Positions 9,205 to 29,649 of a stretch of DNA of 41,611 nt are shown one piece after another. A program made the translations under genes and the position numbers. Within the stretch, counting starts at the first letter, position 1; every line of letters starts with the position of its first letter. The stretch covers positions 1-41,611 of the IMG/VR virus record IMGVR_UViG_3300042972_000017, one strand, 5' to 3'. Origin of the DNA: a virus. Lineage: Duplodnaviria > Caudoviricetes. The notes beneath the pieces are model-generated. The model searched no databases and was not told the DNA's origin. It worked only from the letters and a program-made list of their open reading frames with translations.

Positions 9205-9573
9205 TTAAAGCCATTTGTCTACCTGTATTTTCGCAGCCTCACAAAAGGATGTGTAAGATTCCCATTCAGTTGCATAAGCTTCAGGATCTGTTTGGTGATG
9301 ACGTTGTATAGCGAACTCTTGTGATTCACTGTATTTTGATCTGATTATTGCATTAATTAGATCATCACGACTATTTAAGTTTTCACAAGGCATAATCGTA
9401 CCGCCGTCAACTTCTAAACCTTCATATTGATAACCAGTATATGGCTCAATCTTACTAGAATCGTTTGTTACTGGCTGATACTTATCAAGAATTGTTTCAT
9501 TGAGATACCCGATAATGTGTTTTGAATCGTACTTTTTAAAAGTGCGGGGATTCCGATATACTACTTTATACAT
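9205..9573 (-). CDS. Hypothetical phage protein downstream of the DGR RT
   Basis: 122-aa ORF starting 10 bp after the RT stop, AT-rich leader, followed by a terminator. Confidence 0.7.
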   Translation of the reverse strand: MYKVVYRNPRTFKKYDSKHIIGYLNETILDKYQPVTNDSSKIEPYTGYQYEGLEVDGGTIMPCENLNSRDDLINAIIRSKYSESQEFAIQRHHQTDPEAYATEWESYTSFCEAAKIQVDKWL

Positions 9574-9583
9574 ATTATTTTAT

Positions 9584-11224
9584 TTAAGTAAATTTGAAAA
9601 ATGTTTGTCCGTTCTTACCCTCGAACTGTTTTATAATAGTAGGACATGGTAAGTCCTTTTTTGAAAAATCATTCTCTGCCTGATCAATAAGTATCTTAGA
9701 ACCAGTATAAGAATAATATTCTGCATCTGGAAGCATCGGTTTTCCTTCTTTATCCCGTTTTTTCTCAAATGTATATATTTCTCCAACTGCCCCATCCTCT
9801 CCTATTACTTCTTCTGTTTTCAGAATTTTTTTAAAGCGAATCACTAATACTTTCCCCGAAACGATCTTTGACACACTGTGTAGATTTCCCGCAGAATCTG
9901 GGACATTAACAATAACTTTTTTCTTCTCTATTTTTGACTCACCTACCTTATAATCTTTAAGGTATATTTTTTTGTTCCACCCTGTCTGTTCTTCATGGAG
10001 ATACTGGCAGATCGATGAGAACTTCACTTTTTGATCGCAATCCATATCCTCGAAAGGAACTTTTATACGATGCCTTTTGATGATCTTTCCCAAAGATTTT
10101 TCCATTCCTATTTTTTTGATTAAGTTTATAGTGTTCGCATGTTTCGCATAGCCGAATCGTGATGCCTGCCGTATACGGACTTGTTCTTCTGTTAATCCGC
10201 ATTTTTTCAAATGTGCCACATGTCGGCATAGCTTTTTCTTATTTTCTTTCCCCAACAAAAGTCTGTCATGATAGAATACATAACCACAAAGCCTAACTCC
10301 CATCCATGTTGGTCGGATGTTGTAATCTTTATTGATTATAGCATGATAATCCCTTGATAAAATCATTAAAGAGATTTCTCTAATAATACTGAGGACAGAT
10401 TTATCTTCATGAAAGAAAATCATATTGTCAACAAATCGATAATAATGTTTTATTCCTTCATTAACAAAATATCGGAATCTGTTAGATAAATAGACTGCCC
10501 CTTTTGATAAAAGCAGAAAGTCTTCAGGTGATTTTGCAGTTGCAATTTTAATGTCAATATACCGTCTTGTCCAATATAACAATTTTTCAGGGTCTTTGTT
10601 GATGCCAAAGAACCTTAGTGCCAACCTATCAAAGTCAGCCAGATAAATTAGTCCAAACAATTGCGTTATCTTTATCCCTAAAGGAACCCCTTGGAGATAA
10701 GAATCAACAACTTTATACATAAATCTTAGGAGTTTTCCATCCTTTATCTTTTTTGCTAATTTTACTTTAAGTATATGGTGATCCATACTAGGGAAGTAGT
10801 GATGAACATCCATCGACAGGTTATACATCATTTCCTTTTGCGATGATCGGTATAGATCATTTCGCATAAATCTCATCAATGCATGTGTGCCCAGATGAGG
10901 TCTTATAGCAGGACTCTCCCATGCAATATAATCATATAGTTCTTTTTCATAAGGCAGAATTTCTGCTGCTTCAATCACATGATCATGTATAGGTGCCTTT
11001 CCTAATATCCTCTTTTTCTTTTCAAATATGACTTTCCTCACATATTGAGAAGGAATCCATTTTTCATTAATGATTTGTTCCTTGACGAGTAACAGTTGAT
11101 GGTCAAGATGTTTTTCAAATCTTTGTATATTATGTCTCTTTTTCTTACCTGACGAATAATTTTCGTAAGCTTTCCGTACATTTTCAAGAGTTTCATTTTC
11201 ACGTTTATCACAAATTCTGTTCAT
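9584..11224 (-). CDS. DGR reverse transcriptase (non-canonical FVDN motif, C-terminal extension)
   Basis: RT motifs KKRIL..APIHDHVI, SMDVHHYFPSMDH, GVPLGIKITQ, HYYRFVDN, GVRLCGYVF. Likely start MNRICDK at 11224; the ORF track extends it to a GTG at 11566. Adjacent to the TR/VR pair. Confidence 0.92.
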   Translation of the reverse strand: MNRICDKRENETLENVRKAYENYSSGKKKRHNIQRFEKHLDHQLLLVKEQIINEKWIPSQYVRKVIFEKKKRILGKAPIHDHVIEAAEILPYEKELYDYIAWESPAIRPHLGTHALMRFMRNDLYRSSQKEMMYNLSMDVHHYFPSMDHHILKVKLAKKIKDGKLLRFMYKVVDSYLQGVPLGIKITQLFGLIYLADFDRLALRFFGINKDPEKLLYWTRRYIDIKIATAKSPEDFLLLSKGAVYLSNRFRYFVNEGIKHYYRFVDNMIFFHEDKSVLSIIREISLMILSRDYHAIINKDYNIRPTWMGVRLCGYVFYHDRLLLGKENKKKLCRHVAHLKKCGLTEEQVRIRQASRFGYAKHANTINLIKKIGMEKSLGKIIKRHRIKVPFEDMDCDQKVKFSSICQYLHEEQTGWNKKIYLKDYKVGESKIEKKKVIVNVPDSAGNLHSVSKIVSGKVLVIRFKKILKTEEVIGEDGAVGEIYTFEKKRDKEGKPMLPDAEYYSYTGSKILIDQAENDFSKKDLPCPTIIKQFEGKNGQTFFKFT

Positions 11225-11280
11225 GGTATAATAGATTATACATGCTTCAGGTCTGCTATTTTGACCCGGCAGGTATGCTG

Positions 11281-11365
11281 TTCGCAGTAATATGCTACCA
11301 AGCTCGCTGTCATCTTCCGATATTTTCCCCCATTTGGGGAGGCTCATCCCTATCTCGTGCAAATA
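11281..11365 (-). ncRNA. DGR spacer region between TR and RT (putative structured priming RNA)
   Basis: Directly 3' of TR; contains a TCCCC/GGGGA hairpin (11326-11340) and TTGGTAG...CGAA (11281-11301). Role inferred from the BPP-1 Sp region. Confidence 0.45.
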
Positions 11366-11487
11366 GTTGAGGAAAGCCCCGTAGTTGTCATTGGCGTTCG
11401 AGGGCGCATTGTTACCCGTAAGGGCACAAGGGCCAGCTTCGGAACCATTGTTCGCATTGCTGAGAGCAGCAAGGGCGCGAAGACCAG
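11366..11487 (-). repeat. DGR template repeat (TR)
   Basis: 122-bp copy of 11671-11792; all 10 mismatches are A in this copy (sense strand); rich in AAC/AAT codons. Confidence 0.97.
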
Positions 11488-11585
11488 GAGCAAGGGATTC
11501 TACCCGTCTTGTTAAGGCACTGCAAATATACACAATTTTAGTTAATTCGCGTAAATTCAACTTCATTTTCTACAAAAAAGAACGA

Positions 11586-11618
11586 CCACCCTTGCGGGTG
11601 GAGGCGCTTTTCGCGCCT
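11586..11618 (-). promoter_or_regulatory. Tandem GC-rich hairpins downstream of VR (DGR target-recognition hairpin)
   Basis: AGGCGC-GAAAA-GCGCCT and CCACCC-GCAA-GGGTGG on the minus strand, 8 bp after the target stop codon. Confidence 0.7.
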
Positions 11619-11625
11619 TGTTCGC

Positions 11626-13029
11626 TTAGGCCACCCAGAATGGTGTCGTGTCCCAGTCCTCTGCTGCTTCGCAGAGGAAAGCCCCGAAGTTGCCATTGGC
11701 GTCCGAGGGCGCATCGTCACCCGTAAGGGCACAAGGGCCAGCTCCGGAACCATTGCTCGCATAGCTGAGAGCAGCAAGGGCGCGAAGACCAGACGTTGCA
11801 CCATCTCCATAAAACGCATCACTATAATTAGTTGCAGTACTACCTCCGAAAGATAACGGATATAAGCAAAGGTGCTCTAAATTCATGTCAGAGGGATAAT
11901 TCCAACCATTATTGGATGCCGGTATTGTTCCTATCTTCTCCATACCGGTCAATGTATCTAATGGTATTGCGTCAGAATTCCAAACCTTTTTAATGTAAAC
12001 ATCCTTAGTGGTATTACTATTGTTATTAAGAACTACTCCATGCTGGATATGCCACAAATAATGATAGAAGTTTTTCAGACCGTAGAAAACTGGAATATTC
12101 TTTACAGCAACAGTGTTATCACCGTTTTTCACATCCCATTCAAACACGCCGAGAGCATCCCCCTTATCGGCCAGTGCATCAATATCACATATCGGCCAAT
12201 AGCCAAAAGTTGAAGACATATTATCAACTCCCATTCCCAGGCCTCCCTGATGGAGTCCATCTGTAGTTAATGCTGCATTGTTTCCAGCTTGACCATTTCG
12301 ATTATGAAATACAATGCGCATCAAAGCTCCAACAATAAATGTCATCATGAACATTGAAGCTCCCCATCTATCTCCATTCTTCTCCGCATAAGTTTGATAC
12401 AAGTTACTATTAATATTGACGACAGGTTTTCCCAATTGCGTGTTCCAAGCTGAATCCAAATTACTATTATTTACCCCTCCACGATATTGAGTACTTCGAT
12501 TGCAATAACTGACTAATATGTTATTAGTACGATCAAGTGCTGCTGCTCCAGCAGCAGACATAGATGCAACAGGGATTTTATAATTCCATGCGCCACCGAT
12601 AGGACCAGTACTGATAGCCTCATAAAAATATGTGCTATCTTTCCATTTTGCGTAATAAAACGGCACACCCCATCCCCATTGATAATGTCCCATAGTCCCA
12701 TCCAAAACTGCAGCTGTTCCATTTTCAAGTTTAAAATGGTTTGTTGATGACAATCTTTGACGACTATGATCATTCTTAACTAGATAGCCTCCCAATTGCA
12801 ACACCTCAGATAAACTTCTAAGGAATTCAATATCCCCATAAGGTTCACCTTCAGGAGATGCGGATCCTAATTCCCATCTTGCCCCAGCAACAATATTTGT
12901 CTTTATGATAGAATTTATCTTGATTCTTCCTACTGTATTAGCTGATGGACTATATGCCAAAACACGCATATCATTACTTATATTTTCAAAGTCCTCAATT
13001 TTATCTATTTTTGTCGTATCTTTTGTCAT
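11626..13029 (-). CDS. DGR target protein, probable receptor-binding tail protein with C-terminal C-type-lectin-like variable domain
   Basis: C-terminus contains the VR (GLRALAALSYASNGSGAG...NFGAFLC); YGLKNFYHYLWH resembles the CLec GxxDxxGNxWEW region; last gene of the tail-tip cluster. Confidence 0.88.
   Translation of the reverse strand: MTKDTTKIDKIEDFENISNDMRVLAYSPSANTVGRIKINSIIKTNIVAGARWELGSASPEGEPYGDIEFLRSLSEVLQLGGYLVKNDHSRQRLSSTNHFKLENGTAAVLDGTMGHYQWGWGVPFYYAKWKDSTYFYEAISTGPIGGAWNYKIPVASMSAAGAAALDRTNNILVSYCNRSTQYRGGVNNSNLDSAWNTQLGKPVVNINSNLYQTYAEKNGDRWGASMFMMTFIVGALMRIVFHNRNGQAGNNAALTTDGLHQGGLGMGVDNMSSTFGYWPICDIDALADKGDALGVFEWDVKNGDNTVAVKNIPVFYGLKNFYHYLWHIQHGVVLNNNSNTTKDVYIKKVWNSDAIPLDTLTGMEKIGTIPASNNGWNYPSDMNLEHLCLYPLSFGGSTATNYSDAFYGDGATSGLRALAALSYASNGSGAGPCALTGDDAPSDANGNFGAFLCEAAEDWDTTPFWVA
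11671..11792 (-). repeat. DGR variable repeat (VR)
   Basis: Identical to TR except at 10 TR adenines; lies in the 3' end of the 467-aa gene. Confidence 0.97.
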
Positions 13030-28388: not shown

Positions 28389-28462
28389 TAAGAATCTACC
28401 TTACAAAGGTACTAAAATTATCACTATCACATATCACAAGTTCCGAATATTTAAAAAAATAT

Positions 28463-29526
28463 TATGATTATCCTCAACTGAGTGATTTACTTCAATCATA
28501 GGTTCTGTGCTGAAACATCGGTCTATAGGACACAACTGCAACAACTAGCCTGTCAAAAAGTCTGTCACCAAATGATCTGCGGTTGAATTTCCAGCAGAAT
28601 TCATCCAGATAACTCTGAAGGAACTCGTCTTTGATGCCATGGTACATATCAAGCAAAAGTGACTTTGCGTTCGATATGGCAGTGTGAACCCATGGCAGCA
28701 TTTTCGATGCTTGCTCAGGAAGAGCCTTTATGGGATATACCTCTTTAAAACACCCTTTGAGTCTCGTATGAGATTTGGAGTCATCCGTGATTATTCTGGA
28801 ATCCGCTGCAACTGCGACTTTTGAGACTTCGGTAATGGTAGAGGCTTTCACATCAGGAACGACCTTCATTTTTATATGACCTGACTTGCGATCTTTCTTT
28901 CCTTTCTTCTGTTTATTCTCAGGAACTGCTTTGCTTTCTATCATTACCAGAACTTTTGACTTACGCTGACTTCCTGCACCTGCCTTCCGCTTTTCCTGTT
29001 TCTTTGCCTCATCTGAATTCTCCGTGGAAAAGAAGGCTTCGTCAAGCTCGATGCTCTCGGACAGTTGATATGCGGTATCGCGCTGCCCCATTACCGACCG
29101 TAGTTTATGCATCATCTCCCAAATTGGCTGATAACGCTTATGACCCAGCTGGCGCTGCATTTCAAGAGCAGAGAACGTTTTCCGTGTAGATGTCAGCAGG
29201 TGTATGGCAGTGAACCAATACATTAATGGTAATTTGCTGTTATGCATTACGGTATCAGCCTTTAACGTCGTCTTGTGACCGCACTTCTTGCAAATCCAGC
29301 ATTTATTATACTTATCCCAGATCTGTTGATGACCGCCGCAATGCTTACAGACAACACCAACTTTTTCCCGATAATTCTTGAGATACTCTTCGCAAGAAGC
29401 TTCATCGGGGAAGCGTTTTGAAAATTCTATCAGTTTCATCTTGAAGAGGTTTTGATAATTGATGCAAAGGTAATGAATATCGGGGAATACTCAAAATTAT
29501 TAATCACACAATTGAGGATAATCATA
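28463..29526 (-). mobile_element. IS1595-family insertion sequence, intact
   Basis: 25-bp TIRs TATGATTATCCTCAA(C/T)TG(A/T)GTGATT with 2 mismatches; 8-bp target duplication AAAAATAT at 28455-28462 and 29527-29534. Confidence 0.92.
28492..29439 (-). CDS. IS1595 (ISXO2-like) DDE transposase
   Basis: Zn ribbon CKHC...CKKC, IELDEAFF, IITDD and YLDEFCWKFNRR motifs; promoter TTTG-N19-TACCTTTG at 29465-29495. Confidence 0.95.
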   Translation of the reverse strand: MKLIEFSKRFPDEASCEEYLKNYREKVGVVCKHCGGHQQIWDKYNKCWICKKCGHKTTLKADTVMHNSKLPLMYWFTAIHLLTSTRKTFSALEMQRQLGHKRYQPIWEMMHKLRSVMGQRDTAYQLSESIELDEAFFSTENSDEAKKQEKRKAGAGSQRKSKVLVMIESKAVPENKQKKGKKDRKSGHIKMKVVPDVKASTITEVSKVAVAADSRIITDDSKSHTRLKGCFKEVYPIKALPEQASKMLPWVHTAISNAKSLLLDMYHGIKDEFLQSYLDEFCWKFNRRSFGDRLFDRLVVAVVSYRPMFQHRTYD

Positions 29527-29649
29527 AAAAATATTCATTACTCTTTGAACTAAAGAACTTTTAGAAAACCATTCATACCAATATGCAGACTAAATACACC
29601 AATATTGGAAGAAAATCCTGTAAAAAAGGGCTATTTTGCGCTTTGAACG

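Follow-up and report, generated by a model that had tools for sequence, protein, structure and literature searches.

Asparagine, and sometimes glycine, stands for the third catalytic aspartate throughout a clade of diversity-generating retroelement reverse transcriptases

The presence of three aspartates is taken as the mark of a functional reverse transcriptase (RT). Departures at the second aspartate of motif C, the third of the set, are on record for several polymerases. Retroviral RTs require all three residues, and in the Ty1 RT changes at the other two abolish activity, whereas D211N, which like the clade described below lacks the second motif C aspartate, still polymerises; it is, however, an engineered mutant with a 223-fold lower kpol, a preference for Mn2+ and no transposition unless suppressors are present (PMC2148107). 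A natural, clade-wide D-to-N change at the same position is found in the YVDN motif of the nematode Belpaoviridae (Cer7-12 and Atlas virus; PMC9094657 and PMC554778), but these are eukaryotic LTR elements and, unlike diversity-generating retroelements (DGRs), keep no built-in record of their product such as the variable repeat (VR). The 2005 paper on the nematode elements states that activity was still to be determined biochemically (PMC554778), and the accessible text of these two sources does not mention a glycine variant. The GDN and ADN polymerases of the Mononegavirales and Birnaviridae likewise have a natural asparagine at the second motif C position, are slower and prefer Mn2+, but they are RNA-dependent RNA polymerases; in the Mononegavirales the asparagine itself is essential (PMC4634563), whereas in the clade studied here glycine replaces it in two lineages.

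Among DGRs, the element of Bordetella phage BPP-1 shares with ours the adenine mutagenesis of a tail protein through a template repeat (TR) and a VR, motifs A and B and a fingertip arginine, but its RT (bRT) has YMDD, is 328 aa long and is accompanied by Avd, whereas the RT described here reads FVDN, has no avd in its cassette and carries an insertion of ~50 aa and a C-terminal beta domain. Both YxDD aspartates were 100% conserved in the 155 elements of DiGReF (PMC3521204). The closest catalogued group is Lineage 3 of Wu et al. 2018, which has architecture A1, CLec3 targets and no avd, with long Bacteroidales RTs in rows 125-127 of Table S1, and which shows the same TG-TR-RT order without avd as our element (PMC5758913). 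The accessible parts of PMC11054128, PMC6199706, PMC8143477, bioRxiv 10.1101/2024.11.15.621889, PMC7826257, PMC7736814 and PMC8144416 contain no DGR RT with a DN motif, DN motif terms gave no hits in PMC8632793, and a literature search whose reach ended at subscription papers and bioRxiv supplements returned no report of DN in DGR RTs.

The stretch of DNA analysed here (the window; 41,611 nucleotides) is the 41.6-kb record of a temperate phage with integrase, tape measure, endolysin and primase genes. It also holds a 26-nt inverted repeat (92%; 28462-28487 and 29502-29527, 1014 nt apart), which brackets a 315-aa open reading frame (28492-29439) and possibly marks an invertible segment or an insertion element. 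On the minus strand, positions 9584-11224 encode a DGR RT of 546 aa (PHROG 1423, E 4.9e-50). The frame stays open upstream, through the TR, to an ATG at 11566 (11225-11566, minus strand; 660 aa); the alignment of most homologues begins from the methionine of the 546-aa form, and homologues are mostly 527-583 aa long, with ~650 aa in a few. A Pfam search with this protein gave no matches at E<=0.1. The closest solved fold to its AlphaFold model (pLDDT 85.6) is bRT in the active state (PDB 8ub7; E 1e-15, TM(target) 0.85), which is also its best sequence match among solved structures.

A protein search, from which the best 120 of 328 matches were taken and the RT's own protein removed, gave 119 homologues with 52-71% identity. 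The preliminary description of this DNA had reported FVDN where YxDD was expected, next to an intact motif A, and both readings held when re-examined. The minus-strand codons TTT GTT GAC AAT at 10424-10435 encode FVDN (residues 264-267); in an alignment to bRT (PDB 8ub7) built on a profile from 92 homologues, RFVDN lies opposite RYMDD, so that D266 corresponds to bRT D215 and N267 to D216. N267 thus occupies the place of the second YxDD aspartate, by which DiGReF recognises a canonical DGR RT. Motif A (SMDVHHYF, 10793-10816, minus strand) supplies the catalytic D139, which lies opposite bRT D138 and is present in all 119 of the homologues listed. Motif B (GIKITQ, 10661-10678, minus strand) has the glutamine in place of proline that marks the SQ type, and this Q188 is again found in 119/119 of the listed homologues; the description of GIKITQ as the DGR signature therefore stands as far as the glutamine goes, but the threonine before it is rare (1/119 of those listed, against A in 78 and S in 40). 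The fingertip K70-x-R72 (11009-11017, minus strand) aligns with the bRT fingertip loop containing R74 and falls in near-invariant columns. Between motifs B and C, residues 200-258 (10451-10627, minus strand) contain an insertion of ~50 aa that is helical in the model; it measures 54-61 residues across the RT clade as against ~9 in most other DGR-type RTs, and is common to DD-bearing sister lineages. In contigs from the sequencing runs that cover the RT, runs which may be the window's own source, the motif C letters were unanimous (4/4 runs, depth 11-276). In four runs a second contig of similar depth matched 36 nt of the RT gene (10079-10114) with five differences, and possibly belongs to a related DGR in the same sample.

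The cassette around this enzyme is that of an ordinary DGR. The TR (11366-11487, minus strand) is 122 nt long with 24 adenines and ends ~140 nt upstream of the RT start, and the VR (11671-11792, minus strand) forms the 3' end of a 467-aa phage tail protein gene (11626-13029, minus strand; PHROG 5302, E 9.9e-40), whose stop codon lies 138 nt from the TR. The two repeats differ at 10 of 122 positions, all of them TR adenines, with seven changes to G, three to T and none to C, which reproduces the count given earlier. The locus thus has the repeats of ~100-130 nt differing only at TR adenines, the VR within a coding gene and the adjacent DGR-class RT by which DGRs are recognised. In cassettes of the clade the VR-TR and TR-RT gaps are 185-442 and 139-318 nt, leaving no room for avd. 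The target protein matched nothing in Pfam, NCBIfam or the PDB sequences, but its C-terminus resembles by eye that of the related B. cellulosilyticus target, classed as CLec3 (PMC5758913), and by this analogy it is likely to be a receptor-binding tip with a C-type-lectin fold. Just past the target stop, two adjoining GC-rich hairpins with GAAAA and GCAA loops (11586-11618, minus strand; DNA fold z -4.2 for 11570-11680) are what we take to be the DGR target-recognition stem-loops, in a putative role. GC-rich stems of 6 bp, capped by a G-N(1-2)-A loop, occur between VR and TR in 66/104 pairs, a raw count with no shuffle control. A further 8-bp hairpin (11657-11678, minus strand) spans the 3' end of the VR within the target gene, at the point of divergence between VR and TR. 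Directly after the RT lies a 122-aa gene of no known family (9205-9573, minus strand), to which a 124-aa gene after the RT in the B. cellulosilyticus locus (L119:7514-7888) is similar by eye; such a gene could have an accessory role or be just one of the phage's conserved genes.

That locus, L119, ties our element to the published catalogue. It agrees with row 126 of Table S1 (B. cellulosilyticus DSM 14838) in the RT of 1548 bp, the target of 1422 bp, the repeat of 126, the offset of 356 and the 12 differences, whereas the two disagree by 164 nt in the distance from TR to RT, probably an assembly difference (PMC5758913). Its RT reads RFADN and falls in the same clade as the window (SH-aLRT 98, in a quick tree in which it is the only catalogued Lineage 3 member). 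By these sequence comparisons, the clade of the window belongs to the Avd-less Lineage 3 (PMC5758913), and one FADN member of it was already catalogued there; the accessible text of that paper mentions neither the motif nor the Prevotella-type FVDN/FVDG branch, the glycine variant or the poly-G tract described below. The system is an ordinary DGR with members already catalogued, and the D-to-N change has precedents.

The preliminary description had proposed that the motif defines a divergent RT clade, and the relatives bear this out. All 119 of the homologues listed have R-F-V-D, followed by N in 110, G in nine and D in none, and the nearest among the matches listed (71% identity) also lacks the aspartate. 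Two locus scans with patterns from the thumb and the C-terminal region, and so from outside motif C, gave 127 loci; motif C was readable in 121, that part being absent from the other six, and read FVDN in 88, FADN in 20, FMDN in nine and FVDG in four, with no DD, although these loci are related to one another and the counts are not independent events. Both asparagine codons are in use (AAC 64, AAT 54), whereas the aspartate codons, one base away, do not occur. The RT core has a median dN/dS of 0.07 over 114 pairs of relatives (between the window and its nearest relatives dS is saturated), and R263, K70, R72, Q188 and both other aspartates are essentially invariant among the listed homologues at 52-71% identity. 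Nearly all of the relatives that carry a name come from Prevotella, Segatella and other Bacteroidales. These data clearly show that the whole RT clade has asparagine, and sometimes glycine, where the third catalytic aspartate would be, and that it is under purifying selection; as set out below, it is also tied to adenine-specific diversification.

The change is, however, less singular than the near-universal YxDD of the preliminary description implied, with precedents in print and others among DGRs. A search among 50% representatives yielded a list of 150 proteins, and in a core tree of 117 rows including the window, from which short or gapped rows were left out, DN occurred in 18 representatives on several branches, requiring nine changes by parsimony; the third aspartate has thus been lost more than once. 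In a quick maximum-likelihood tree of 54 rows, the window lay within a 22-row DN/DG clade (SH-aLRT 99) nested in a 32-row clade of long RTs (SH-aLRT 100), five members of which retain DD. The larger clade includes a second DN group of five rows (SH-aLRT 96), whose three loci have adenine-biased VRs, and in this tree glycine arose twice within FVDN. Seven short RTs of the DGR type, reading YMDN, YNDN or YCDN (P0183, P0215, P0220, P0227, P0232, P0234 and P0264) stand singly among DD relatives.

A DGR writes the output of its RT into the VR, and the repeats of the clade can be read as such a record. Of the 110 loci whose upstream sequence reached 1 kb or more, 103 had a TR/VR pair, which was undetected in the other seven. 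Over full repeat alignments of 103 distinct pairs, the window's included, 1243/2354 TR adenines were changed as against 54/9981 other bases. When loci were grouped by a shared TR core, each of the 20 groups contained more than one VR, and 315/437 adenine positions were variable as against 24/1563 others; since all members of these groups already lack the aspartate, this variation postdates its loss. A further set of FMDN loci (L215-L225) had a TR/VR pair with differences only at adenines in 10 of 11 cases, and three FVDG phages (L003, L004 and L030) share one TR but have three VRs. Together with a fourth, L010, these FVDG phages have adenine-diversified VRs and one RT per phage record. The elements of the clade, those of the FVDG phages included, thus appear from their repeat sequences to be active. 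For the window's own element, current diversification is not evident from contigs, because its VR was the same in the main contigs of 8/8 runs; contigs drop rare variants, and several of these runs may be the window's source. In one run (X7), two low-depth contigs differed at many non-adenine places and were taken as a relative.

On this evidence, we think it likely, with a probability of about three in four, that the RT still copies TR RNA with adenine errors using only Asp139 and Asp266. These two residues would hold the metal(s), as the single cation visible in the bRT structure lies 2.2 and 2.3 Å from D138 and D215 (bioRxiv 10.1101/2023.10.23.563531), the counterparts kept here. The third side chain would be dispensable, as the tolerance of glycine suggests, with water or substrate occupying its place. 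Such an enzyme would run more slowly or favour Mn2+, like Ty1 D211N, which a DGR could afford, as it copies only ~120 nt, and rarely. The fused C-terminal domain probably binds single-stranded nucleic acid and may substitute for the missing Avd.

A different account of an active enzyme would have the site rearranged rather than reduced, the third metal ligand being provided by another acid, by an RNA phosphate, or from within the insertion or the C-terminal domain. Close to the motif, the clade does have changes of its own (Y to F264; in motif 2a, T104 to S/A/C and Y105 mostly to P/C; H272 and N302), and the acids D81, E85, D98, D199, D274 and D300 are invariant in the 119 close homologues listed. 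However, D81, D199 and D274 are also found in DD enzymes, the same insertion and C-terminal domain are present in DD sisters, and DN also arises in short RTs that have neither. Our search for acidic columns convincingly specific to the DN group, made by alignment only, found none apart from D292, which is E in several DD rows. Compensation from the motif D region by D300 was rejected, as most FADN/FMDN members have S or G at this residue and the profile alignment places S there in bRT. A substitute ligand is on balance unlikely.

The 7/3/0 spectrum of the window had also suggested that the asparagine alters fidelity or base preference, a proposal that we now regard as improbable. Pooled adenine changes in the 103 pairs were G 574, T 387 and C 281 (46/31/23%), as compared with G 425, T 297 and C 140 (49/35/16%) in 59 DD control pairs, and the lack of C among the window's 10 changes has p ~0.08. 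The control loci came from a scan with the short DN RT P0227, which gave 80 loci, all DD. The two spectra do differ nominally (chi-square p 0.0014), but it is in the DN clade that C is commoner, the opposite direction to that suggested earlier, and the comparison involves related, non-independent pairs, VRs filtered by selection and a control made up largely of a single Bacteroidales lineage. DGRs in general have been reported to follow the order G > T > C (PMC3521204), and differences at non-adenines remain at ~0.5%. As the pooled spectrum is ordinary and A>C is not depleted, the idea of an altered A>N spectrum fails.

If the RT were instead a dead scaffold that binds TR RNA, the cDNA would have to be supplied in trans by a host or co-resident RT. 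Candidate donors do exist: further strong RT matches were found in 4/5 host genomes searched, and one 54.7-kb viral contig carries both an FVDN DGR (L014) and a YVDD DGR (L193), each with its own TR/VR pair. Nevertheless, the phage records of all five relatives contain a single RT, as does that of the window, and the draft genome of B. cellulosilyticus gave one strong match, the FADN enzyme itself, plus one weak fragment. In the bRT structure, RT and RNA form an intimate complex, from which specificity to its own element may be surmised (bioRxiv 10.1101/2023.10.23.563531), and the catalytic, fingertip and motif B residues of the clade stay essentially invariant at 52-71% identity, which makes a dead enzyme very unlikely. 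In one host genome (G001, that of L087), ~15 near-equal RT matches of 476 aa are likely to be a multiplied group II intron; at the FVDN locus of this genome a TR/VR pair was undetected. Finally, a sequencing error or a fresh inactivating mutation in one phage, with which the uniform VR in contigs of the window's phage would agree, can be dismissed, since the asparagine codon is present in contigs of all four runs covering the RT and the aspartate is missing from the nearest homologue and from the 118 others among the matches listed.

Turning to the proposed Avd substitute, the C-terminal beta domain (residues 416-546; 9587-9979, minus strand; model pLDDT 88.6) is probably of the OB-fold/SSB-like type, an assignment to be taken as a lead. 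Structure comparison returned mostly OB folds at Z of 3-4.8, within the background range, Foldseek gave no matches at E<=0.001, and an Atlas score of 0.91 was obtained to clusters in which 21% of members have Phi29_Phage_SSB; the predicted domain is thus likely to bear a weak resemblance to OB-fold ssDNA-binding proteins. DD sisters carry the same domain. As to whether the domain may be a fused CH1 accessory protein, the control loci in which CH1 was expected have a small gene of a different kind behind the RT and gave no matches to the domain profile. Just before the domain, 68 of the 89 FVDN/FVDG sequences scored (the window among the 89) have a run of at least seven G (C in one), for example L011:7230-7270, L016:7230-7260, L027:7235-7250 and ~65 other loci. 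The tract is 7-16 nt long, lies between the RT thumb/linker and the domain, and varies in length within lineages; the window itself has an in-frame GGGTGG linker at this site (9977-9982, minus strand) and no tract. The domain is out of frame in 47 and in frame in 21 of the 68 tract-bearing sequences, and both states occur in 7/12 multi-member lineages with the tract. The RT core, 132 kb of sequence in all, contains only six such runs, and between out-of-frame copies the domain has a dN/dS of 0.055 (71 pairs), so that purifying selection persists. The tract resembles those of bacterial phase variation, and from its sequence looks like phase variation here, to which homopolymer read errors can contribute. 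No link was found between frame and VR divergence (0.58 in frame, n=16; 0.59 out of frame, n=40), a weak test because VR differences are historical.

Taken jointly, these observations allow a broader scheme that we put forward as tentative and, in its entirety, rather doubtful. The third carboxylate would have been shed many times in DGR RTs, this phage clade would have gone furthest, its FVDG enzymes working with two aspartates and a third position bare of any side chain, and the loss would act as a brake on the hypermutation rate, while a poly-G phase switch would fuse or drop an SSB-like replacement for Avd, the result being a compact single-protein mutator with heritable on/off control.

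Specialists in RTs would not expect a whole clade to have lost a catalytic aspartate, down to glycine, in elements that keep their own record of activity. On Pfam RVT_1, 10 of 10 FVDN-group proteins scored below 20 bits (best 19.4), which was the first-round genome cut-off in a large survey whose later rounds may have recovered such RTs (PMC8144416). A single-protein DGR that is independent of Avd could interest engineers of targeted mutagenesis. The role of the third aspartate becomes directly testable, in a cultured Bacteroides lysogen and with an N-to-D revertant. Natural YxDN RTs were known before in nematode elements, without proof of activity; because a DGR writes its RT output into the VR, the present clade provides evidence from nature for in vivo function of DN enzymes, and even of DG ones. 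A DN motif should not be taken to mean a dead RT.
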